A stretch of DNA of 58,540 nt, counting the filler, from Squatina squatina (taxonomy: Eukaryota), in assembly GCA_031763465.1 (NCBI GenBank). It is 4 parts of 4 records of this genome, joined end to end, with 100 filler letters (N's around TTAATTAATTAA, not from the genome) between each part and the next. Parts side by side here need not be neighbours in the genome. Positions count along the whole stretch, not along the records: positions 14,355 to 30,410 come from JARFOE010000120.1; 3 more parts are not named here. One strand, given 5' to 3'. The position numbers were made by a program, and so were the translations under genes. Below the pieces are notes generated by a model. It made no database searches, had not been told where the DNA came from, and saw nothing but the letters and a program-made list of their open reading frames with translations. Below, in pieces: positions 14,255 to 56,560 of this stretch. Numbering within the stretch: position 1 is the first letter of the stretch; each line of letters begins with the position of its first letter.

Positions 14255-14354
14255 NNNNNNNNNNNNNNNNNNNNNNNNNNNNNNNNNNNNNNNNNNNNTT
14301 AATTAATTAANNNNNNNNNNNNNNNNNNNNNNNNNNNNNNNNNNNNNNNNNNNN
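14255..14354. other. Artificial scaffold-joining linker (N44-TTAATTAATTAA-N44)
   Basis: Exact 12-mer at 14299-14310 inside a 100-nt N block; it gives stop codons in all six frames; identical design at three sites. Confidence 0.97.
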
Positions 14355-15297: not shown

Positions 15298-15418
15298 CTA
15301 GCGGCATGATGGAGAGGTACTTCCCACGGAATTTGCTGGCGATGGTGATTTCCTGCCACAGGGTCCAGCCGTACTTAGAATAGACGTGGTGGGCAGCTGC
15401 GGGTGGGTGATGGCTCAC
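15298..15418 (-). CDS. OSBP2: OSBP2 internal exon, ORD signature (EQ)VSHHPP
   Basis: 121-nt exon, ttgcag|GTGAGC...CCGCTAG|gtaagg. Encodes VSHHPPAAAHHVYSKYGWTLWQEITIASKFRGKYLSIMPLG, the OSBP-family fingerprint. Confidence 0.95.
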
Positions 15419-16412: not shown

Positions 16413-16580
16413 AGGCATGGGAATCTTGGACAGCTCCTTCCCAATGCAGTTTTTCATAATGCTCCAGAGGTTAAGGCTGTAATTGGGCTTGTCTGGGATT
16501 TGGGTCCGTCTCTTTCTGTTCGGCTTTACCTCCCTGCTTGCTGATGCACTGAAGGAACCTTGGTGCTGACAGCCAACAAC
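16413..16580 (-). CDS. OSBP2: OSBP2 internal exon, start of the OSBP-related lipid-binding domain
   Basis: 168-nt phase 0/0 exon, cctgtag|GTTGTT...ATGCCT|gtaagt. Encodes VVGCQHQGSFSASASREVKPNRKRRTQIPDKPNYSLNLWSIMKNCIGKELSKIPMP. Not in the ORF track. Confidence 0.95.
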
Positions 16581-17162: not shown

Positions 17163-17790
17163 GGCAACATCACGTTCAAGGAATTTGAAGAGAAAAGGGA
17201 GGTTGGAGATGGGCCGGTAGTTTGCAAGGACACAGGGTTCAAGGGTTGTTTTTTTGAGGTGAGGGTTGATGACAGCAGATTTGAGCGAGAGGGGGACAGT
17301 ACCTGAGGAGAGGGAACCGTTAACAATGTCAGCTAACATGGGAGCCAGAAAAGGAAGTTGGGTGGTCAGCAGTTTGGTGGGAATAGGATCAAGGGAGCAG
17401 TAAGTGGGTCTCATGGACAGGATGAGCTCAGAAAGGTCATGAGGGGAGATTGGAGAGAAATTGGAAAAAGATGTAGAGCCAGGGCTAGGTCAGGGAGGGT
17501 CCTTAGAGGAAGTTTGGCCCAGTGGGCTAGCGGAAGAAAGGGAAGCGACAGAGGCAGCTGAACAGATGGTCTCAATCTTGGAGACAAAGAAGTCCATGAG
17601 TTCCTCACAGTCATTGTCGGAGGTGAGGGTGGAAACTGGGGAGAGGCATTTAAAAAGGTGGCTAGCAGTGGAGAATATGAGCCAGGTTTTATCTTTACAT
17701 TCCAGGATGATTCTAGAATAGTGAGCTTAGTTTAGGGAGGGAATTTCAGAGCTTTAGGATCTAGGCAGCTGAAGGCAAGGTTCCCAGTGG
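17163..17790 (-). mobile_element. L2-clade LINE ORF2 fragment
   Basis: MRPTYCSLDPIPTKLLTTQLPFLAPMLADIVNGSLSSGTVP...LANYRPISNLPFL, typical of L2 RT N-terminal motifs. Confidence 0.9.
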
Positions 17791-19078
17791 GCCCAGTGCA
17801 AAGCCAGCACACTACAGTTTAAGCCTGACATTCTCTGGCTTTTATTCTTTTGCTATATGATTTACTTTTACAATATCAAGTTATACAACAAAAATATGCA
17901 AGAAAATAAATTAAATGCTTCCTTTGTAACTTTTTTATAGTTTAGTCTTTAAGATCAAACCATAACCCAGTAAATCACTTTCCATTGCTTGTTCACCAGT
18001 GGTTATATTACAGCACCCTTCAATTTTTCTTTTTCCTCTTGCAGTACCGTCCTCACCCAAATTCTTACAGGCACAATTGCTGAAGCACTGGATATCAATC
18101 AAGAGCGGTAAATCTGGCCACTTATTTCCCATCCCTAATTCAGGTGCTGAGACTAATTATAATGCATTTGTTATGCATTTTTTTTTATATAAACATGGTC
18201 TAACTAGAAGTGATTTTATTGCGGGAAGAGAAGTCAGACAAAATAATGCTAATTAGTAACACGGGTGTGGATCTTTTCTCCCTCCCAATCGTCAAGCAAG
18301 TATTAAGAGATTTGATATTTTTTTCTCTCTGCACCACTCACCCTATTCTTCTGAAGCTGCTGCCTCTTGAGGGAGCGTGGTCACTGTTGCCAGCTGACCC
18401 TTGAGACATTGCCAAAGGAGGATTTCTTTGTACGNNNNNNNNNNTGGTCCTTACCTAACCTGTACATATGCATAATTTCAGTAAGGGTTCACTGGATGGT
18501 ATTAAGGAGCAAGGACTCTAGCTGATTTTTCCCCTCCTAAGGACAGATGCTGAGGCTTAACAACCTATCCATGCCAGACGAGATGAATATGTGAATGATT
18601 TATTCAGTAGCAGAGCTAAATTTAGCCTACTGTGGTGGGGGGAGGGGCTGTTAAACTGAAGATTTGGCCAAAAAGGCTGACGGGGTCGAGCTGGGAACCA
18701 GGGAATGCTGACTTGCCAAGTCCAAAGGCGGAGTCAGGAACTGCACAGACTTGCAGGCCAAAGACTGGTGACAGAGGTTCCCAGAAGCGAAATAGAGATG
18801 GTCCTCCAAAGCCTCGTTGGCTGACCTCAAAATGAGATCCCAGGAGTATTCGGAGTGGTGTTACAGAGCAGGTTAGCTTCAGAATATACATGGAAGGAAA
18901 AACTGTAGGAAAGTCAGAAGAACACAGTAGTTTAGAAATTAAGGTTGATATTACTTGTTCATATGACAAGGTAACCAATTTATAATGAACAGTAATTAAC
19001 AATAATTTCTGGGCTTAAATGTAAAATGTCCATCTCGTTTCTGTGATATTAGTTCCAGATATTTTAAGTGAGAGACAC

Positions 19079-19260
19079 AGTTTAATTGAAAGACTGACCA
19101 GGCTGGGGCTCTTTTCTCTAGAAAAGAGAAGACTGAGGGGTGACCTGATAGAGGTCTTTAAAATTATGAAGGGGTTTGATTGGGTAGATGTAGAAAAGAA
19201 GTTTCCACGTGCGGAGATCAAAACTAGGGGCCGTAAACATAAGATAGTCACTAATAAATC
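19079..19260 (+). mobile_element. CR1-clade LINE ORF2 C-terminal fragment
   Basis: ERLTRLGLFSLEKRRLRGDLIEVFKIMKGFD motif. Confidence 0.9.
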
Positions 19261-19360
19261 NNNNNNNNNNNNNNNNNNNNNNNNNNNNNNNNNNNNNNNN
19301 NNNNNNNNNNNNNNNNNNNNNNNNNNNNNNNNNNNNNNNNNNNNNNNNNNNNNNNNNNNN

Positions 19361-20231
19361 AATGGCGGAGAGGCGTTGGAGGAGGATAGAGTGATCAACC
19401 GTGTCAAAGGCTGCAGACAAGTCAAGAAGGACGAGGAGGGATAGTTTACCTTTGTCACAGTCACGAAGGATGTCATTTGTGAATGTGATGAGAGCCATTT
19501 CGGTACTGTGACAGGCGCGGAAACCAGATTGGAGGGATTCAAACAAGGAGTTCCGGGAAAGATGGGCATGGATTTGGGAGGCGACAACACGTTCAAGCAC
19601 TTTGGAGAGGAAAAGAAGGTTGGAGATGGGGCGGTAATTTGCAAGGACGGAGGGGTCGAGGGTTGGTTTTTTTGAGGACAGGACTGATGGCAGCAGATTT
19701 GAGGGAGAGGGGGACAGTACCTGAGGAGGGATAACTGTTAACAATATTAGCTAACATGGAAGCCAGAAAAGGAAGTTAGGTGGTCAGCAGTTTGGTGGGA
19801 ATAAGGTCAAGGGAGCAGGAAGTGGGTCTCATGGACAGGGTGAGCTGACAAATGTCATGAGGGGAGATTGGAGAGAAACTGGAGAAAGATTTGGAGTCAG
19901 GGCGAGGGCAGGGGGGGATCCTTAGAGGAAGATTGGCCCGGTGTGCTAGGGGAAGGAAGGGAAGTGGCAGCAGCGGTTGAACAGAGAGTCTCAATCAGAG
20001 ACAAAGAAGCCTATGAGCTCCTCACACTTAATGACAGATGTGAGGGTGGAGACTGGGGAGAGGGGTTTAAAAAGATGGTTAGCAGTGGAGAATAGAAACC
20101 GGGGTTGATCTTTACATTCCAGAATGATTCTGGAATAGTGAGCAATTTTGGCAGACGAGAGCATGATCCGATAATGCTTTATGTGGTCCAGCCAGTTCTG
20201 GCTGTGAATGGCGAAACCAGTTGTCCAACAT
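19361..20231 (-). mobile_element. L2-clade LINE RT fragment
   Basis: LANYRPISNLLFLSKVLERVVASQ...LQSGFRACHSTEMAL...LLVLLDLSAAFDTVDHSILLQRL; same family as 17163-17790. Confidence 0.92.
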
Positions 20232-20665
20232 NNNNNNNNNNNNNNNNNNNNNNNNNNNNNNNNNNNNNNNNNNNNNNNNNNNNNNNNNNNNNNNNNNNNN
20301 NNNNNNNNNNNNNNNNNNNNNNNNNNNNNNNTTGCTTGTGACAAGGTGCACACAGTATGAAGCCTGTCGGGTTGTGTTCATTCTTCGAGTAAAGGGATTT
20401 CTCCACACCCTATTAGAGTTGGGCAGTGTCTCACTGCCAGCAGAGTTGCAGCTCAACTCCAGCAGTGTGCGAAGGAAGTCAGGAATGAAGAGGAATACAA
20501 ATAAAACAATTTTCATCAGCGTGAAATCTCAGTTAATACAAGGTTCACAATAAAAATGAGTCAGCAAAGTCACCCATTTATCTTTCATCCAAAGAAAATC
20601 TGAAGCAGCATTATTGCAATGTAAGAGAGGAGGACATATATTAAGCATCGCTCCACAGACACTAC

Positions 20666-20874
20666 CTGACTGATTGTTCATCATCCGAATAGCTTTGGAC
20701 TTGGCCAGTTCGAGCGCAGTCACCCAGCGTTGCCGTTCCACCTCCGAGCTTGCCTTCAGGTGGTACGTGCGCCCACTATCTGAGAGCACAAAAGTGCAGG
20801 AGTCCTCTACATCGATGTGGGCAGTTGCCAGGTTAATGGTGCCCCTGCATGTGTGCCCCATCTCGGCCTGGGTC
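20666..20874 (-). CDS. OSBP2: OSBP2 exon 2, C-terminal part of the PH domain
   Basis: 209-nt exon, ttcaccag|GACCCAG...CAGTCAG|gtagtg. Encodes (R)TQAEMGHTCRGTINLATAHIDVEDSCTFVLSDSGRTYHLKASSEVERQRWVTALELAKSKAIRMMNNQS. ATAHID and AIRMMN favour OSBP2 over OSBP. Confidence 0.93.
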
Positions 20875-21625
20875 CTGGTGAAATAATAAAACAAATATGA
20901 CACAATGAATGATCGTACCAGTGTTGCACACGGGTCCACTACATCACTGAACCTCTTCCAGGCATTCAAACATTCACCACCATATAATTGACAGAATAGC
21001 TTACAAAACCTCATTATTTTTCCATGTAGGAATCACTATTATTATTTATTTTGTTCCTCCAATTTTGTTTTTCTCTGGACTCGTACTGGGCAATAATTCA
21101 CAGGTCCGAGTCTCCTTCCAACACCTACCCCAGCTGGCTGCTCTTCCTCATCAGGGAAGGCAGGTAGGTTTGTTCAACAACCATGGGAGGGAAGGAGGCA
21201 ACATTGTAACTGCGCCCGGCCCTGTCCTTCCTCATCCAATGCGCACATATATACTTTCTCGGACAAATCACTGAATAATGTGCAGGAACAAGAACCATCT
21301 CTGGCCCAGAGGTGCTATCACATCTACTGCCACTGAAACTATCTCAGCGCAGAAGGATTGTTGAACCCCAGACATTCTGGTTTGCCTGGCTGATTACCAC
21401 CTTGATCAGTGAAATTACAAAGACCTCTGGAACATGTTGTAGTATCCATTTTTCATGATTAATTTCACTTATACTCTTTGGCGTGGTTTGTTCCTCCCCT
21501 CTTCCTCCACCCCCCGCAGTAACAGNNNNNNNNNNNNNNNNNNNNNNNNNNNNNNNNNNNNNNNNNNNNNNNNNNNNNNNNNNNNNNNNNNNNNNNNNNN
21601 NNNNNNNNNNNNNNNNNNNNNNNNN

Positions 21626-21830
21626 AGTCCTGTGTAGACCAGGCCGAGTCGGGGTAGCAAGCTCCCTTCCCTCAAAGGCTTGAACCAGTTGGATTTTATG
21701 ACAACCTGGCAGCTTTCTTCACCATTATCTAGTGCCAGCCAAGAAATGACCAGAATTTATTGAATTCAATTTTGCAACTTGACCTCTGGGAGACTAGTCC
21801 AGTACCATAACCACAACCACTAGGCAACCG
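21626..21830 (-). mobile_element. tRNA-derived SINE fragment
   Basis: Minus strand begins cggttgcctagtggtt...atggtactggactag (tRNA A-box-like head), then aattgaattcaataaattctgg. Confidence 0.55.
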
Positions 21831-22829
21831 TATCTATTATAATAGAAATTAAAAAATCTGGGCGAATGTCCTGTAAGCAGCAAGAGACTGGCCGGTCGAC
21901 TTAAGGATTAACCACAGGAAGAGATCACCGAAGACGCAGCACCTGCACCCTCAGAAGCTTGTGTTTCAGTAACCTCTTTATATTCTACAGATAGGCAGAA
22001 GAGACAAGTACAAATTGTAAACAATCCTTGGAAAAATACCAAGGAGTAGACTTTACTAATCTGAAGGGAACCTGCATGGATCTGAGTGAACACAGCTGTT
22101 TTGATTAGAAAACTGCTACTTGCAAACACGCGACAGTACAATTTCAGCCTCAGGAAGTGCAGCTTTGGAATTAGCTGAATTGCAAAGTATCGCAAATTAC
22201 TCAAATGAATTTGGTCGTGCTATTATCCCATCCAACTCGGTGGCTAAATGTTCGAGATGTTTTTGGAATAGCAAATAGGTCCAACCAGGACACATAGCGC
22301 CACTGCATCCATATACTTAGAAGGGAGCTTCCTTATTACAGAGTGGGGCAATGGTNNNNNNNNNNAGAAAGAAAGGTGAGTGAAGTTAATGAAAAATTGG
22401 TAACGAGAGCAAAAAGCAAGGTGATTTGTGTAGAGAGGTGGGGCTGAAATAATACACAAAACTTTCCAAACACAACATATTCCCCTCTGTTACCCGATGA
22501 AATTAATTCTGATATCACTCCAGGTTGCCTCTAATTTTCCTTTGGCCCGCACAACTCATTATTCAAAATTCCACGCGTGCAAGGTTTTTCTGTTTAAAAC
22601 CCGGCTTACTGGTTGTGCAAGTACTGCAGAGCGCTGCGTGGCTGTGAAGCTTAAAGGGAATATTGCTATCACTTGTGCCTAATGAGATAGCACAAGGGCA
22701 CGGACATTCTGTTTGGTATCACACATACACCCTCTGCTGCGAAAATAAACACTAAAACCAAAACACAAAAACAGCAAGAAACCAGTCTGCAGGTGGGAAC
22801 ATTTTTCAGAAAGGACATGATGATTTGTT

Positions 22830-23200
22830 CAAGTTTGAGCTCGTTTCTCAGAAATGTGCCAAAGCACTTGACATACAATGAATTACTCTGAAATGCATTG
22901 GCTATTATGTGGGGGATTGAACCAGCCATTTTGCGCACACAGCAATGTCCACAAACAGCAAAGAGAATAAACAGCTAACCCATTTTTGGTGGCTGTGGTG
23001 GAGGGAAAAATATTGGCCAGGACAGCGGGAGTGCTCCCTGGTCTTAAAATGGGATCTTTAATGGAATGGCACCGCCAGTTATGCAGCAAACTGCACTAAA
23101 ATGTTGGCTTGAATTACAAGCTCAAATCCTGGAGTGGGGCTTGAACCCATAACCTTCTGACTCAGCTGCAAAAATGTTACCAGATGAATCATGCTGACAT
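22830..23200 (-). mobile_element. Decayed SacSINE1-like DeuSINE
   Basis: gagggaaaaatattggccaggaca..., atgggatcttt and ctggagtggggcttgaacccataaccttctgactcag match the better copies. Confidence 0.75.
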
Positions 23201-23727
23201 TGAAATTACTTAAATTGCCAGTTTGCATTGTTAGAAACATATTATCAAAGTGCTTTTTTCAAGCAGTTTCTTCGTAACACAAACAAGGGAGGGTCAAACA
23301 CAGTTCCAACTCACTTTCCCGAAGCAGAAATTTGATATTTGACCCACCCATTCACAGACATAGCTCACATCACAGGAGACCAGCTAAACATGCCCAAGTA
23401 CTTTAGCAATGAGGAAAAAACTGTAAATCTGGAGTAAAGAGACAGAAAAGTTTGGACGTACACAGCAGGTCCATCACCTATAAAGTCAATGGCTCAAAAA
23501 TTGCTGTGAAATGTTTCAAAGATTTCCAAAATCAATTTGAAAAAATCAAAACATCGGATTCCCAATAGCCCACAGTCTGGAATTTTTCCAGAACCATTTC
23601 CTCACACAAATGGGCAGACAACAGTCTCTGTAAGTGGACCGCATGCTTACGCTATCTAACCAGTGTCTTTCACTCTCTGCCATACGGAGTTATTTAGTCT
23701 TGGGATGTGGGCAACACCAACAAGGCA

Positions 23728-24009
23728 ATAAGACCATAAGAAGTAGGAACAGGGAGTAGGCCATTCAGCCCCTCGAGCCTGCTCTGCCATTCAGTAAGAT
23801 CATGGCTGATCCAACTTTCTTCAAGTCCACTTTCCCGCCCAATCCCCATAACCCTGGACTCCCTTACTGATTAAAAATCTATCTATCTCAGCTTTGAATA
23901 TATTCAAGGATTCAGCCTCCACAGCTTTCTGAGGCAAGGAATTCCAAAGACTCACAACCCTTTGAGAGAAGAAATTCTTCCTCATCTCAGTCTTAAATGG
24001 GCGCCCCCT
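23728..24009 (-). mobile_element. CR1/HER1-type LINE 3' end with tail
   Basis: cataagaagtaggaacagggagtaggccattcagcccctcgagcctgctc...gagagaagaaattcttcctcatctcag is the reverse complement of the CR1 ORF2 end and 3' UTR. Confidence 0.85.
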
Positions 24010-24109
24010 NNNNNNNNNNNNNNNNNNNNNNNNNNNNNNNNNNNNNNNNNNNNNNNNNNNNNNNNNNNNNNNNNNNNNNNNNNNNNNNNNNNNNNNNNNN
24101 NNNNNNNNN

Positions 24110-24377
24110 CCTGGTACTGCGCCTCCAGGTCGCGCACCAGCATCCGGATGTAGCGCAGGCTGGCGCTGGACAGGGCCTTCATCCAGGCCTCCTGGCCGGG
24201 CTGGTCCTCGGCCGCCAGCTTGTACAGGCGCAGGCTGGGCTGCCGTTCAAAGACCACGGCGAAGGCGAAGCCCTCGGCTGATGACTCGCACAGCTGCACC
24301 GAGCAGCCCTCCAGGACGACCAGGCCTTGGGGCTCCCGCTCCCCGGGCCGCTCGAAGTAGAATAGCAGGTTCCCCCT
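24110..24377 (-). CDS. Sesquipedalian/PHETA (FAM109/IPIP27)-like PH domain segment, in frame with OSBP2 exon 1; truncated by a gap
   Basis: RGNLLFYFERPGEREPQGLVVLEGCSVQLCESSAEGFAFAVVF...YKLAAEDQPGQEAWMKALSSASLRYIRMLVRDLEAQYQ matches the PHETA pattern RGN(M/L)LFYFE...G(V/L)(I/V)(I/V)LEGC.V.L.E...FAFAV.F...Y.LAAE.Q...W.KALS.AS..Y.R..VR.LE.Q. Paralog not assignable. Confidence 0.85.
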
Positions 24378-24518
24378 CAGCACGAACCAGCGGCGCTGGT
24401 AACCCTTCAGGTAGTTGGTCCATTTGTGGAGCCAGCCTTTGTGAGTGTCAACGTTGCCGGGCGGTGAAGGCGGCGGCGGCGGCGCGGAGCTGGAGGCCTC
24501 TCTGGGCGCCTCACTCAT
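24378..24518 (-). CDS. OSBP2: OSBP2 first coding exon, 5' part (start at 24518 or alternatively 24632); normal 3' end and splice donor absent
   Basis: MSEAPREASSSAPPPPPSPPGNVDTHKGWLHKWTNYLKGYQRRWFVL. KGWL.KWTNYLKGYQRRWFVL is the OSBP2 PH start. The ATG at 24518 has A at -3; the frame is open upstream to the gap. GC/CpG-rich contig. Confidence 0.88.
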
Positions 24519-24764
24519 CCTGTCGCTGGGGTGGGGGCCCGGGCCGGAGACTTGCAAATCCTCACACGGCACCGAACTGTCCAAGGCCAGCACCCCGCAG
24601 GAGGACGGTACCAGAGCTGCCGGCTTGGCCATGGAGGAGGCGGGCGGTGCAGCGAGAAGGCGGGNNNNNNNNNNNNNNNNNNNNNNNNNNNNNNNNNNNN
24701 NNNNNNNNNNNNNNNNNNNNNNNNNNNNNNNNNNNNNNNNNNNNNNNNNNNNNNNNNNNNNNNN

Positions 24765-25083
24765 ATGTGATAATGGCCAAATAATTTGTTTTTTTAGCAT
24801 TGTTGTTTGAGGGATAAAAATTGGCCAGAACACCAAGGAGAACTCCCTGCTCTTCTTCAAAATAGTGCCATGGGATCTTTTACATTCACCTGAGGGGGCA
24901 GACAGGGCTTCGGTTTAAAAATCTCATCCGAAAGCCGGCACTTCTGACTGTGCAGCACTCCCTCAGTACTGCACTGGAGTGTCACCTTAGACTACGTGCT
25001 CAGATCTCTGGAGTGGGGCTCGAACCTACAAACCTTCTGACTCAAGGGGTGAGAGTACTACCGACTGAGCCACGGCTGACACC
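24765..25083 (-). mobile_element. SacSINE1-like DeuSINE
   Basis: Minus strand starts ggtgtcagccgtggctcagtcggtagtactctc...gtaggttcgagccccactccagag (A and B boxes), followed by the same core as 5251-5615. Confidence 0.9.
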
Positions 25084-25805
25084 TTACCTTACTCTTTCAC
25101 TCTCATACCTCAAAACTGGGATCCTAAACAGACCCATCTTCTCTTTCAGACACCAGCTGACCTGCTGTGCAGTCGCAGCATTTTCTGTTTTTATTTCAGA
25201 CTTTCAGCAATATTTTGTTAATTCGGTAATAGTGTAGTGAATAATGCAAAGGCAAATCCTGGTTTGCTTGATTTATATAATCTGTTCCTTACTAAGCTTC
25301 CTGCTAAATTACATTGATTTCATTAATGTGGTGCTAATTGTATGGTGCTTCTGTTTTTAGTAGGAAAAACCACGGCCATTGGGGAGGTACTGCATGGTGT
25401 GTCAGTAGGAGTGTGTGGAATTCTGTGGTCATGTCACTGGCAGTTTCGAATGGCTAATTATGGAGGATATTGGTGGCCACCTGGGAGGAGACTGTGTACT
25501 CTCAAATTCTGGGTCAGGTATGGGGCTCTCCATGTGAAGAATAGGAGAATTGGGCACACAAAATGAATGGAGAACGTCCCTGAATATATAAACATTAAAA
25601 AAATAATGGGGAACAAAATGGCAGTAGGTTATGTAATGTTTAAGTTTCTGATAATTTGGCATGGTATGATTAACTTGCTATGTAACTGGATTCCCTGCTT
25701 TTTGGGGCATGGGTGACCATAAGGCGTTTCTTCTCAACTGGGGCAAGCGATAATGCCTTGTTACTTAATGGATTTCAGTGTGAGTGATTGTTCCAGTGAT
25801 TACAG

Positions 25806-25987
25806 ATGGCTGTACCACAGCAGGCCGGGATTTCTGGCCTAGATGCCCAGCAGACTCTCCTGGCCACAGTCAGTGGAAATGTACAGAAATATGCAGTCAA
25901 GAAGAAGAAGATCCTCAATGCAGAAGAGCTGGAGCTGTACGAGCTCACACAGGCCGCTGGTATTGTCATGGACCAGGAAGTGTTCAA
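25806..25987 (+). CDS. MZT2: MZT2 (MOZART2, gamma-tubulin ring complex subunit), first coding exon
   Basis: MAVPQQAG...QKYAVKKKKILNAEELELYELTQAAGIVMDQEVFK resembles MZT2 KKVLSTEEMELYELAQAAG..IDPDVFK. Ends TTCAA|gtaagt (phase 2); ATG directly follows tacag. Confidence 0.92.
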
Positions 25988-26232
25988 GTAAGTCCAAAAG
26001 TAGCCATAAAGGTGAGAAATAACCCTGGAAACTTGAAATTAAAAATGAATAATGCTGGAATAGTTTCTTTTTCAGAAGTTGATCAACTACTGTGCATTTC
26101 CAGCATTTTCTGTTTTATTTGAAGTTTGATCAACCTTTCCTACAAGCTTGAATTGAATGTTTTTGGGGAGTCAGGAGGTGAGTTACTCACCGCAGAATAC
26201 CTAGAACTGGCCTGCTCTTGTTGCCACCATAT

Positions 26233-26517
26233 TTACGTGGCTGGTCCAGTTATCTACAAGGCACAAGTCAGGAGTGTGATGGAATACTCTCCACTTGCCT
26301 GGACAAGTGCAGCACCAACAACACTCAAGAAACTCAACACCATCCAGGACAAAACAACCTGCTTGATTGGCACCCCATCCACCACCTTAAGCATTCATTC
26401 CCTCCACCACTGGCACACCATGTCTGCAGTGTGTACCATCTACAAGATGCACTGAGGCAACTCACCAAGGTTTCTTCGACAGCACCTCCCAAATCCCCCA
26501 ACCTCTATCACCTAGAA
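26233..26517 (+). mobile_element. LINE ORF2 C-terminal fragment (CR1/L2-related)
   Basis: IYKAQVRSVMEYSPLAWTSAAPTTLKKLNTIQDK...IHSLHH...AVCTIYKMH, a post-RT region of non-LTR ORF2. Confidence 0.8.
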
Positions 26518-30410: not shown

Positions 30411-30510
30411 NNNNNNNNNNNNNNNNNNNNNNNNNNNNNNNNNNNNNNNNNNNNTTAATTAATTAANNNNNNNNNNNNNNNNNNNNNNNNNNNNNNNNNN
30501 NNNNNNNNNN
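30411..30510. other. Artificial scaffold-joining linker
   Basis: TTAATTAATTAA at 30455-30466 with 44 N on each side. Confidence 0.97.
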
Positions 30511-44891: not shown

Positions 44892-45263
<372 letters not shown>

Positions 45264-45669: not shown

Positions 45670-45769
45670 NNNNNNNNNNNNNNNNNNNNNNNNNNNNNNN
45701 NNNNNNNNNNNNNTTAATTAATTAANNNNNNNNNNNNNNNNNNNNNNNNNNNNNNNNNNNNNNNNNNNN
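45670..45769. other. Artificial scaffold-joining linker
   Basis: TTAATTAATTAA at 45714-45725 with 44 N on each side. Confidence 0.97.
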
Positions 45770-48723: not shown

Positions 48724-49926
48724 TGGCAGAAACTCTACACCCAAACCAAACTAAGAATGTAACTGAATCAAATGATCTTTCGGTAGGTATAGTAACTTAT
48801 AGTTTAGTTATATTGTGGATCTCTTTCAAAAGCTGTAAAAATGTTAGGTGCCATTATGTCTGCAGGCAGAAAATATAGTTGCTTATTGCAAGCATTATCT
48901 TCTCATCACGCACTGGTCACTTTGTAGCTCTGCAGTTCATCGTATGTCCTTTGTGCAGCACAAAGACATGAGTGCATAGAAAATGTTCTTGTATTTAGTA
49001 TCAGTATAGATAAGCACTGCACCCCATTCCTGAGGTTGTGTAGAGGTCAAGGAGTTAAGCTCTGATTACATTTAACCCAACTAAATTTAAACAGCAAATC
49101 AATTTTAAACCCACTGATAATATTGTAATGGACATACCATTTGCTGTTTATTTATAGTTGGATTATATTTATAAATACATGTTGTAGTTAAACTTTGTGG
49201 ATACTGCATCTGGCACTCACTAATTAAAATAAACCAGATTTATTCAGTGTGATACCCTAATTCCTGGTTGAGTTGCACCATCATTTAAGGGATAAATATT
49301 AACACCGTGCTTCAGCCACTGAGTCAGGCGATTGAATCCCAGCCATTGGGCACGATTTGTCACTTTTTATGTGTGCTGCTTGCAGGAGTGCAGTGCGCCA
49401 ATTCAAGGAGAGACAGCGAGTGAGAGACAGCAGGCCTCAAAAACGAGTTATCTCCATGAGTTATCTCCCGGAACACTATTGGCAGCCACCTTACACGACT
49501 CCACAGGCCAGTCTATCTAAATCCTCAGCTGAAGGAGGAAGCATGACAGTGTGGGCTCAAAATACAAGAGAGAAAAATCCTTTGAAAAGAGTGAATTATT
49601 GAAGCTCAGAGGGACTTGGACATCTGGAAACTACAACAGGTGGTCATCCAACCATCTCATGTCAGCTTCCATATCTGTATCCATTATAACTGCTAATATG
49701 GCAAGTTATTTTCTCCCCATATGTTGTGTACCAGTGTCTGCGCTGCAGTAACTATTTTGGAGGACAGCCATCACCATGGCATTTACCCCAAGTAGAAACC
49801 GTAATTTCAAGTCAAAAATCTTTCCACTATTGATTATTGACTAGCTTCTGAAAACCAATATGTCATTTGCAGCAGAGAGCAAAATAATGCCAAAGCCGTG
49901 ACAGTAACCCTAGATCTGCTGCTTAC

Positions 49927-50315
49927 CCGGTGTATTGTGTAAATCTGCAACAGTCCTGTCTTTAAATAATTCATACTGGAAGCCAGTGATTTTTCTGCTT
50001 ATGTCCATCTGAGGGGTGGCCTGGATAAAGAGTGCCCCCTGGTCCATTCCAAAGCAATACACCTTGTTGGGGATGTGGTCCTCTTCACTCACAAGAAGTT
50101 TCAGATCACCAGCTTTTTCCAAATAAATATTAGCTCCCTTGGAGTCTTTGAAAGGCTTAACGCAGACAGTCAAGTCTTTGTAGGAGGATGTTGCTATATT
50201 GGTTCTTAGGTTAACCCTTAGGGCTCCAGTAGGATACAACCATTCCAGTGAGCCTTCGGAACAGCGCAGGTACACCTGTTCTACTTCTCTGGAGTGACCA
50301 TTGTGCGTTAATCCA
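49927..50315 (-). CDS. METRNL: Meteorin-like (METRNL) large internal exon
   Basis: 389-nt exon, ttttttcctag|TGGATTA...ACACCGG|gtaagc. Encodes (S)GLTHNGHSREVEQVYLRCSEGSLEWLYPTGALRVNLR...GANIYLEKAGDLKLLV...CFGMDQGALFIQATPQMDISRKITGFQYEL...DLH. EVEQVYLRC, ANIYLEK and TGFQYEL fit METRNL better than METRN. Confidence 0.9.
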
Positions 50316-53300
50316 CTAGGAAAAAAGCAGAGCGAAAAACAATTAAAGTCTTTGCAATTTGTAAACATATCCCACTGAGTGTGCTTTGGGTGGCTTGCTG
50401 GTGGAGTTTTCCTTGCAACTGTCTGTTTACAATCATTTCTTTATTAGTTCCATAAATTTGAAATGGAAGAAGCAGTCTCGCCATATTCAGAAGGGTTTTG
50501 AACAAGGCCTATCAGAAAATACTGACATGACAGGTCAATTGTTTCAGTCGAAGAACGATTCTGAATTGCAAGACAAAGGCACTGTAGTTTGTAACTTTTT
50601 GTAGATTACAATATTGATCGCTGAATAAAGACAAAAGGGATAGTGCAATTTAACGGTAGTTGCTGCCCCTGAACTGGGCTTTATATATCTCAGAAGGGTG
50701 GAGATCCATTTCTCATCCCTATTCCCTTGGATCCTGTGTGAATAATTGCAAGGTAAGTACTGCTCTCTGNNNNNNNNNNNNNNNNNNNNNNNNNNNNNNN
50801 NNNNNNNNNNNNNNNNNNNNNNNNNNNNNNNNNNNNNNNNNNNNNNNNNNNNNNNNNNNNNNNNNNNNNACAGTAATCTAGGGGAGTGATATTTCTTTGA
50901 ATAAGTGACAAATGCCACAGTCAGATCAGGTCCTGTAATGCTTATTTATCAGTTCACCTAACATTTGGCTTGGATCAAAGCCACAATACAAAAAAGGTGA
51001 TTGACGTGCCCAGTGACATTTACTTCAACATAGATGTTAACCAAGTTGAAAAATATATTGGTTCTGAAACTGTAAAATGGTTCCTTTACAAATGGAGAAA
51101 ATATCTCCGTTCAGTCAATGGTTAAAAATGCTCTTTTTCTTTTGAATTTGACAATTTGTTCGAAGTTGAGATAGTAGTTAGCCTGCTGACAGGAAATTCT
51201 GAGCACAATCAAGTAAAAAAAATCTTTATTCCTGTTTAACACCTTTGGTAATCTTCCACTTTAAAGCTGGTATCTGCTAGCAAAGTCAATTTATGTGGGT
51301 TGATAATGCACTAAAATTACTCTGCGGTATTTGCATGTTGCTCCTATTACTGTGGCTCTTTAGCTCTTCTGAAGTGTTGCTACATATATGTCCACAATGT
51401 TCAGGTCAGTTTAAATTGTTTACATGATCTGAATAAGTGAACTTTAAAGAAAAAAAGCTCCAGGCATGAAGAGCTTATCTTTCCAATTAAATGTACTGGG
51501 TGATGCGGTTATATTGCAGTAACCCATATTTAATTTAAGTGGTCATTATTTTGAGTCGACTTATCTCACACTTGTAAACGCACTGACAGATAACAGGTCA
51601 CTTTTCATTAGCTTTTGGCAAACTTTTCCTGGGTAAAGTAAACTTTCTTTGTCTGGAGGACGTCTCAGACCTCCCAGGGTATAATCACCACATGTCAAAC
51701 AATAACTAGAAGTTTACACAAAGGTTTTAAGGTGGGCAAACAAAGAGCCTTGGCATTTGACTAATTAACAGGGAAAGAATTAGCTGAGCCTCTTTTTTAA
51801 CATGGTTGGAGGAGAAGGAAAAGTCCACAAACTCACGTGTTGGTAAACATACTATTATACCTATTATAAGAAGCTATCTGCTGGGACCCATTAGGACACA
51901 CACAGTCAAGGTTCTGGTAAAGAGGAACCCCTGGCACAAACTATAATGTCTTCGTACCCAACAGTTTGTAATAGCGAGGTTGGACTTCAGTTATATATCA
52001 CATTTTGAGTAACGCAGCAAAAATATACAAGTGAAAGCTGAGTGGTTTGGTTGATTGGAGCTTGAAACTTGTGCTTTTTACCGCTTCAATTTTCTCTGCT
52101 CAATCACCCCCAGTTCACCTAGGAGTGACAGCTCATGTTGGGGTACAATGTTGGCCTTTCTACACCTTGCCCAAGTGGCACGCCTCATACATCAGCCTGT
52201 TAAGCTCACATCACACCTCTCTCTTTCCCGCCACACAGGCTTGACACTCCTTAATGCCCACTGGCAGTGTGGGGCCCTGGAGCCCCAGCTGTAGTTTTCA
52301 TTCGAGAGACCTCCGATGAATTTGTTTTCCAGGCAATAGCACTTAAAAATACAGGCTGCCATCCCCCATCAATACAGTTGCCCTTGTCTCTTTTGGCCAG
52401 CATTGTTTCAAAATCCCAGTTGCTCAATGAGATTTCATAAGCCCAGTGAATCAAGCGGGTGAATCACTGCGAGTACAATGGAAGTAGGTGACAGCAACAG
52501 GTGATTAATGTTTTCATTGAGGTTTTCAGACAAAAATAATAAGGACATTTGAATACTAAAATTCTTATTTTGAACGAACATAAAAAGCATGTAGCTCGTG
52601 TATAATCATAACTATGTCACCTTGTAAAATATTTTTATCAAAGCGGTTCAATTTAAAAGGCTTTCTTAAGTAAACATGTGTGATGCTTCGCAGGTGCTTT
52701 TTTCCCCTCCTCTCTGTTCAAAAACAATGTGCCCTCCTTCCAGAGACCAGCGAGAATCTCAGCGCGTTACTTTGGGTATGAATTACAGGGTAGAAACGGC
52801 TCATTAAACTCATGGGTTGTAAATTCTCCTTCCTCCATCAAAAACAAACACCAACTCGAAATACTAAAATATTCCAAAAACAATGAAGGTGCCTTTTTTA
52901 AAAGTTATTTTTTCTCAATTAGATTCTCCTTGCAATTTCCATCACCCTTGCTCAAAGGGTAGGTAGCCTGTTCCCAAAGATTCAACAGCACTACACAGAA
53001 CTGACAATTAGGGTGTAAACAAGAGGAAAACACATTAGTGGCAAAGCATGGAGTGAATACAGTCAATAGTTGGGCCACTACAGATCGGCTCCAAAGAAAC
53101 ACCGCCCCTCCCCACCCTTTCCCGCTATCAATGCATCAGCTCCAGAACACATGGTGTTCTTTCATATCAGNNNNNNNNNNNNNNNNNNNNNNNNNNNNNN
53201 NNNNNNNNNNNNNNNNNNNNNNNNNNNNNNNNNNNNNNNNNNNNNNNNNNNNNNNNNNNNNNNNNNNNNNCAAGCTATTCCATTCTGAGGCATAGATAAT

Positions 53301-55870: not shown

Positions 55871-56560
55871 GAGGATGAAATTTCCCCTTTTTATAGCCCC
55901 GTTCATGCCTCCTACTGAAGCGGAGGACACTTTTCGCCCGGGGTGGGGGTGCTACGGGTTCCCGGGAAACTGCGGAGGCGCTGACTCCTCACCGCCCATG
56001 CGTTGACTCCTTAGCGTCCCACGGGGGAAGCTGCCCCGCGGGCCGCGAGGCTGGCCCGAGCGGATGTCAACGCCAGCGTCGCAGGTTGCGAAGCTGGCCG
56101 ACATCCGCTCTCGGGGAGCCGGTTAAAGGGGAGAGCGCAGGCGCCCCGGGCCGCCATCTTCTCTGGATGGCCAACTATCGGGTCAGCTCCGTGATGGCGG
56201 CCCCAGCGTGGCCTGGGCCGCCGTCGTGCACTCCGCCTTGGGTGTCGGGCTGCAGGCCCCAGTCCCACGTTACCCTGGTGGCCTAGTGGAGACCGTCAGA
56301 GGCCTTGCAGATTGTGCAGTGGCCCCTCCACTTTAAGCGAAGGGGAGGGGCGTTGAAGCAAGTCGGCACGACGCTCACCACTCCAGCAGCACCCCGGGGA
56401 ACTGCAGCCAAATTAAGTGGGCCGCGCGAGATTGCGCTCCGTTTCCTTCGAGGGTAAGTCGAATTCAGCGTCGGGAGCGGGACATCTGCGCCATGAGCAG
56501 AAAGCCTCATCCTCAGAAGGTTACCGCCCCCAATCGGGGCACAGGGCACTTTTCGCCCCC
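55871..56560. mobile_element. GC-rich non-autonomous DNA element (probably Harbinger-type)
   Basis: Sharp GC/CpG block with TIR-like ends (gaggatgaaattt ... acttttcgccccc) and internal inverted ttaaaggggag / cccctccactttaa. Similar ends occur at 8746-8822 and 42498-42554. Confidence 0.6.

Follow-up and report, generated by a model that had tools for sequence, protein, structure and literature searches.

The region of interest lies in a 58,540-nt stretch of the draft genome of Squatina squatina (hereafter referred to as the window), and comprises 555 bp (24110–24664, GC 0.68) that correspond exactly to one contig (Table 1). Read on its minus strand, this contig begins as exon 1 of a shark OSBP2 gene, continues as such up to the amino acid motif YQRRWFVL, and then proceeds as the exon of a shark sesquipedalian-1-like (PHETA) gene. 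A sequence-only reading of this DNA had reported a single uninterrupted minus-strand ORF with an OSBP2-type first half and a PHETA-type second half. This was borne out, with 184 stop-free codons running across the whole contig (24662–24111; P0001) and with both parents named correctly. Neither end of this frame is closed; it runs into the gap without a stop codon and without the PHETA C-terminus, and a full Pfam PH match spans the join (residues 74–168 of P0001, E 8.8e-18).

Table 1. Features of the contig carrying the join and of the surrounding OSBP2 locus (positions in the window).
Feature	Positions	Strand	Remarks
MZT2 (MOZART2) coding exon	25806–25987	+	Pfam MOZART2 E 7.6e-22; GT donor after the exon
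100-N gap	24665–24764		promoter side of the contig; 100 N is a nominal size
OSBP2 (ORP4L) exon 1, 5′ part	24402–24664	-	end of 5′ leader, ATG 24632, second ATG 24518, first PH-domain strand to ...KWTNYLKG
Junction word TACCAGCGCCGCTGGTTCGTGCTGAG	24376–24401	-	YQRRWFVL plus AG, 26 nt; widest possible overlap of both parents, edges from relatives' contigs
PHETA / sesquipedalian-1-like coding piece	24110–24375	-	rest of PH domain and start of the next helix
100-N gap	24010–24109		PHETA side of the contig; 100 N is a nominal size
OSBP2 exon 2 (second half of OSBP2 PH domain)	20666–20874	-	intact; AG acceptor, GT donor
Internal OSBP2 exon (~residues 394–449 of P0122)	16413–16580	-	tblastn 94%; AG/GT ends; Oxysterol_BP E 1.2e-5, below the Pfam cut-off
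Internal OSBP2 exon (VSHHPP..., ~residues 532–571 of P0122)	15298–15418	-	tblastn; AG/GT ends

Both halves of the frame were readily told apart by protein similarity. Residues 11–87 of P0001 are identical to each of the OSBP2 proteins P0122 and P0124 at 52/77 positions, with PHETA proteins scoring at background (50–60), and the OSBP-type strands KGWLxKWTNYLKGYQRRWFVL are present, the 14 residues preceding the motif all being identical to those of P0125, P0132, and P0141. Residues 96–184, in which the PH core is of PHETA type and extends from (K/R)GNLLFYFE to the C-terminal helix, are identical to the sesquipedalian-1-like proteins P0002 and P0003 at 68/87 and 65/89 positions, respectively, and score at background (48–53) against OSBP2. 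A PDB sequence search with the hybrid returned general PH domains only. The sequence-only reading let the ORF begin at MSEAP, but the OSBP2 start is the ATG at 24632, located 38 codons earlier, from which the frame reads MAKPAALVPSSCG, corresponding to MGKAAALLPSSCG of P0122.

The four OSBP2 pieces of the window (i.e., the partial exon 1, followed by 20874–20666, 16580–16413, and 15418–15298) are arranged in order within 9.4 kb. The earlier assignment of a genuine OSBP2 exon 2 was upheld, including its splice acceptor and donor. At the protein level, this exon is identical to P0139 (Mustelus asterias) at 69/69 positions and to six other chondrichthyan orthologues at 61–68 of 69, and all 15 of the differences listed against runs X19 and X7 (in which differences near piece ends were left out) are silent third-position changes. 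Exon 2 is intact and, as judged from this substitution pattern, under purifying selection. On the other side of the contig, MZT2 is oriented head-to-head, so that the 5′ half of the contig occupies the proper place of OSBP2 exon 1; both ATGs are 1.17 kb apart, including a gap, and a shared CpG-island promoter is possible. The space between exon 2 and the next OSBP2 exon is filled with LINE reverse-transcriptase fragments (17163–20230; RVT_1 E 1.4e-13 at 19361–19750).

Nevertheless, the locus is far from complete, as tblastn found no match in the window for residues 166–393 and 450–531 of P0122 (~310 of the first 572, or ~54%), indicating that the 100-N gaps hide much sequence. The FFAT motif of OSBP2, expected between the PH and lipid-binding domains, presumably lies within the first of these two missing stretches. 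The expected end of exon 1 had earlier been noted as missing, and indeed neither NGLL.YY nor GLLSY occurs in the six frames of the window. OSBP2 proteins P0123, P0124, P0132, P0141, and P0150 furthermore have an insert of ~25 residues (STCSPSCSGLQPGGG...) inside the PH domain, between exons 1 and 2, and no exon encoding this insert was found in the window by tblastn with P0124.

The PHETA piece likewise ends in frame at the contig edge, without a stop codon and without the F&H motif, and has a GC3 of 0.93. This C-terminal F&H motif of PHETA binds OCRL, according to passages of PMC7272357. A loose pattern scan of the window for F&H yielded six matches elsewhere, none with a PHETA-like context, and the PHETA N-terminus is absent from the six frames of the window, so that neither of the reciprocal halves (i.e., the OSBP2 exon-1 end and the PHETA N-terminus) is present there. 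In two other sharks, the PHETA-like records stem from small contigs (17 kb for P0002 and 501 kb for P0003), which hints that shark PHETA is hard to assemble.

The switch between both parents was previously placed inside 24376–24401, and the contigs of relatives diverge exactly at these two positions. Among the 24 public runs listed, none contained half of the 53 words sampled, the best share being 0.09, and no RNA run was listed as a holder. These contigs, which belong to other species and are not Squatina reads, were aligned from four runs of two organisms at 80% likeness, and in none of the four runs did a piece bridge the junction at this likeness. PHETA-type contigs of the relatives fit 24288–24401 and stop at 24401 in 4/4 runs; past that position they read LLMKGQLKPS, which matches the register of the first strand in the PH domain of shark PHETA (GFLLKKGELNPS in P0004), and at the other end they continue beyond 24114. 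OSBP2-type contigs, in turn, are identical to the window over the 75 nt from 24376 to 24450 and depart at 24376 in three of the four runs. Run X19 has one OSBP2-type loose end, in which SNGLLSYYR leads to a GT donor 24 nt beyond the junction, and in run X5 (which is RNA by guess only) a two-contig consensus gives ...YYR-TQ, with exon 1 spliced to the beginning of exon 2. Another OSBP-type contig, which shows 10 differences, the two listed ones together converting YLKG to YIKG, also departs at 24376 in 3/4 runs; we take this variant to be OSBP1. Relatives that differ by ~7% in exon 2 show no difference over the terminal 75-nt segment of OSBP2 exon 1, which represents unusually strong silent-site conservation.

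A PHETA contig from a third organism (run X23) fits 24116–24401 with 30 differences over 286 nt and no gaps, and again stops at 24401. This organism is close to Squatina squatina, differing from it at 6 positions over 212 nt of exon 2. A second layout of relatives' contigs, covering 20332–26517 in four runs, is dominated by repeats and showed no junction among the matches listed, with run X21 having nearly no cover there. As read from these contigs, the relatives keep two separate, normal genes. The check proposed in the sequence-only reading, i.e., whether sequences are clipped at the motif and continue into normal OSBP2 or PHETA, thus gave clipped contigs continuing into normal OSBP or PHETA, albeit in other species and from contigs instead of reads.

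The proposed microhomology of ~24–26 nt consequently stands as to its position, with the 26 nt being an upper bound that is set by the relatives and not by Squatina's own PHETA copy. Given how codon usage is biased in the PHETA half (GC3 0.93), both genes would use the same eight codons with a probability of ~0.02 (24 nt), decreasing to ~0.002 when the extra AG is included (26 nt), both values being rough and derived from small counts. An exact match of 24–26 nt, although uncommon, is within reach, and an artefact requires it as much as a real recombination does. An exact search of metagenome contigs, a collection that is uninformative for sharks, returned 0 matches to the 24 nt of the motif.

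Homologues of P0001 were surveyed among the best 120 of 158 near-length matches, the best 120 of 662 longer matches, and all 67 shorter matches (307 in total), with shark sesquipedalian-1-like (PHETA) proteins on top of the near-length matches and shark OSBP2 on top of the longer ones. Classes were anchored on the motif, with OSBP-type requiring at least 9/14 identical residues before it and PHETA-type at least 13/30 after it. Accordingly, 180 of the listed homologues matched upstream only, 118 downstream only, and nine neither, whereas none of the 307 (and none of 240 in an earlier set) matched both flanks of the junction among the matches listed. An unlisted homologue hiding a hybrid is unlikely, since a true hybrid would be expected to rank first. 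One protein known to match both halves would have spoken against a chimera; it was looked for among these 307 listed homologues, and none was such a protein. Similarly, no OSBP2-PHETA fusion was found among the matches listed in the open-access literature, and the open-access literature searched held no text treating sesquipedalian, OSBP, and the PH domain together.

This survey also bears on whether P0001 might simply be an old, single PH-domain gene that resembles both families. The (Y)xRRWF strand is indeed widespread among PH domains, but each half of P0001 is related at orthologue level to a different shark gene, including the OSBP2 leader that lies outside the domain, and 75 nt of perfect identity to the relatives' OSBP2 are followed by an abrupt switch. 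With no intermediate among the 307 listed homologues in addition, an old single gene was rejected as extremely improbable.

YQRRWFVL itself was found in 178/180 of the OSBP-type and 27/118 of the PHETA-type homologues, always in the same register. As the register of the motif does not differ between the families, any join through YQRRWFVL would be in frame and PH-like. The in-frame status of the contig was therefore rejected as a sign of selection, as it follows automatically from the shared register.

This matters for the reading in which the contig represents a real, heritable, and young recombinant, originating from ectopic recombination or microhomology-mediated repair through the shared motif, by which a PHETA body acquired the promoter of OSBP2/MZT2 together with the first two PH strands. 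It would encode a PHETA-like adaptor whose PH domain combines the basic loop of OSBP2 with the core of PHETA, and it would be regulated as OSBP2, being present as an additional copy or in place of ORP4L. Such a gene would account for the open frame of 184 codons with its full Pfam PH match across the join, for a clean join at homologous positions, and for the absence of the normal exon-1 end from the window, while the adjoining gap could hide the rest of PHETA, including the F&H motif. Yet both the frame and the PH match come for free with the shared register, and the join is found in 0/307 homologues and in no contig of a relative, among the matches listed. Moreover, the hybrid would be devoid of the conserved PHETA N-terminus, the Arg6 of which is conserved and was modelled to stabilise the domain (as described in part of PMC7272357).

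The state of OSBP2 poses a further difficulty for a real recombinant. If an intact OSBP2 copy remained in the genome, the assembly graph would be expected to branch at 24376, and without such a copy, the perfect conservation of exon 2 would be expected to erode before long. The kept splice ends and conservation of exon 2 fit with continued production of a complete OSBP2 PH domain. A very recent change would leave no trace in exon 2 yet, and this exon could also be kept for the PH-truncated ORP4M, the use of exon 2 by ORP4M being assumed here; PH-truncated ORP4 forms including ORP4M are described in passages of PMC6440634.

The genomic position of the parents points in the same direction, as in Scyliorhinus torazame the records that carry them differ in length (P0141, 426 Mb; P0004, 147 Mb) and the parents are thus probably unlinked there, which further disfavours a recombinant. 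In Rhea pennata, sesquipedalian-1 (P0093) and OSBP2 (P0135) are found on records of the same length, so that OSBP2 may be linked to some PHETA paralogue. The human PHETA genes adjoin CUX2/SH2B3/ATXN2 and NAGA/SMDT1/NDUFA6, according to passages of PMC7272357. Taken together, we consider a heritable recombinant gene to be improbable.

Even less probable, by a clear step, is a private or somatic rearrangement (i.e., a translocation or deletion at the microhomology) devoid of evolutionary meaning. It would explain both the absence of the join from relatives and the intact exon 2, but a heterozygous or mosaic join would be expected to lose to, or branch with, the two normal alleles.

The state of the assembly around the junction is poor. 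The window consists of 40 pieces with a median of 1,229 bp and a maximum of 3,379 bp, and contains 29 gaps of 100 N, five gaps of 10 N, and three 100-base spacers (44 N + TTAATTAATTAA + 44 N), and the contig with the join breaks inside GC-rich sequence at both ends. It shares no repeated k-mers with the rest of the window (k = 15, 21, or 26). The TTAATTAATTAA spacers (14255–14354, 30411–30510, and 45670–45769) have a 12-base core with a stop in all frames; genes differ between the segments flanking them, and they probably join unrelated scaffolds. Among the matches listed in a literature search, TTAATTAATTAA turned up in bacterial-genome papers only.

Elsewhere in the window, a single CTBP1-like exon was identified at ~44907–45125 on the plus strand (PDB match to C-terminal-binding protein 1, E 1e-40), with no other CTBP exon noticed nearby. 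A coding exon on the minus strand at 49913–50440 had no Pfam match, its atlas leads being limited to an ADAMTS-spacer scoring under 0.9; it looks like meteorin-like (METRNL). Finally, a CpG-rich piece at 55900–56400 (GC ~0.69) is probably a promoter or first exon.

The junction edges that coincide with a short word, the poor local assembly, the lack of any bridging relative, and the intact exon 2 together favour an artefact. When all technical routes are considered jointly, the contig is very likely an artefact that was formed through the shared word, and the OSBP2-PHETA hybrid is most likely not a real feature. The short-k assembly chimera of two GC-rich exons that was suggested from the sequence fits with the junction edges, the relatives, and the 0/307 homologues alike, and is in that sense supported. 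More specifically, the join probably reflects a collapse of the de Bruijn graph at this word. Both OSBP2 and PHETA of Squatina are GC-rich and would write YQRRWFVL with the same C/G-ending codons, creating an exact shared word of up to ~26 nt. With a k-mer size of ~26 or less, this word would become a crossing point in the graph, and the true exits (on the OSBP2 side the final 24 nt of exon 1 plus the donor, on the other side the 5′ end of PHETA) may have been covered so thinly that they were pruned as dead ends. Under these presumed values of k, coverage, and pruning, one wrong through-path would remain, and the resulting contig was then likely placed at the OSBP2 locus by the scaffolder on the basis of its 5′ half. 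Shared k-mers as a source of chimeric contigs, and the pruning of tips and low-coverage paths as a routine assembler step, are both covered in parts of a metagenome review (PMC7299287).

Some points weigh against such a collapse. The short-k route fails if k exceeded ~27 throughout, the contig is unbranched through the junction, which requires the loss of both true exits (as assumed above), and real microhomology-mediated rearrangements leave the same type of junction. The same contig could also have arisen by another technical route, i.e., a PCR template switch in the library or the later merging of contigs that both ended in the shared word. The junction lies exactly on this word, and the several kinds of gaps (100 N, 10 N, and TTAATTAATTAA spacers) suggest that more than one joining step took place. 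Library chimeras, however, are usually confined to one molecule and outvoted at normal depth, which disfavours the PCR variant. All in all, we regard such a route as unlikely, albeit somewhat less so than a genuine recombinant gene.

If the join is an artefact, it illustrates that GC-rich genes sharing a protein motif can become fused in frame at that motif in fragmented short-read drafts. The plausible hybrid domain passes Pfam and would be annotated as a novel fusion, thereby hiding two normal genes; in the animal itself, OSBP2 and PHETA are likely both ordinary genes. If the join were real, on the other hand, it would constitute a rare case in nature of two distant PH families exchanging strands inside the domain, and a lineage-specific shark gene in which a PHETA body has come under the promoter of OSBP2/MZT2, along with the leader and the basic phosphoinositide-binding loop. 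Such a protein could bring an OCRL-binding adaptor to PI4P membranes, with lipid binding and OCRL recruitment possibly changed.

In comparison with the OSBP2 genes of other sharks (P0122 from Heterodontus francisci, P0124 from Heptranchias perlo, and P0139), the Squatina locus has the same leader from the first Met onwards and the same first two PH strands up to YQRRWFVL, and exon 2 and two later exons also follow downstream in order with intact splice ends, whereas the contig lacks the SNGLLSYYR and phase-2 GT donor that end exon 1 in relatives. Compared with shark PHETA (also known as FAM109, Sesquipedalian, or IPIP27; P0002, P0003, and P0004), P0001 is 73–78% identical to P0002/P0003 from YQRRWFVL through the PH domain and the following helix, while OSBP2 sequence stands in place of the N-terminus (MKLN...) and the first PH strand; the F&H motif by which the C-terminus of this family binds OCRL falls outside the contig, which ends in frame before it. 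Finally, the contig resembles the de Bruijn chimeric contigs described in parts of PMC7299287 in that two unrelated loci of a fragmented draft meet precisely at a short word common to both. It differs from the metagenome chimeras treated in those parts in that both partners are genes from a single genome and the word they share encodes a protein motif, and it is because of this motif that the join resembles a sensible in-frame gene.
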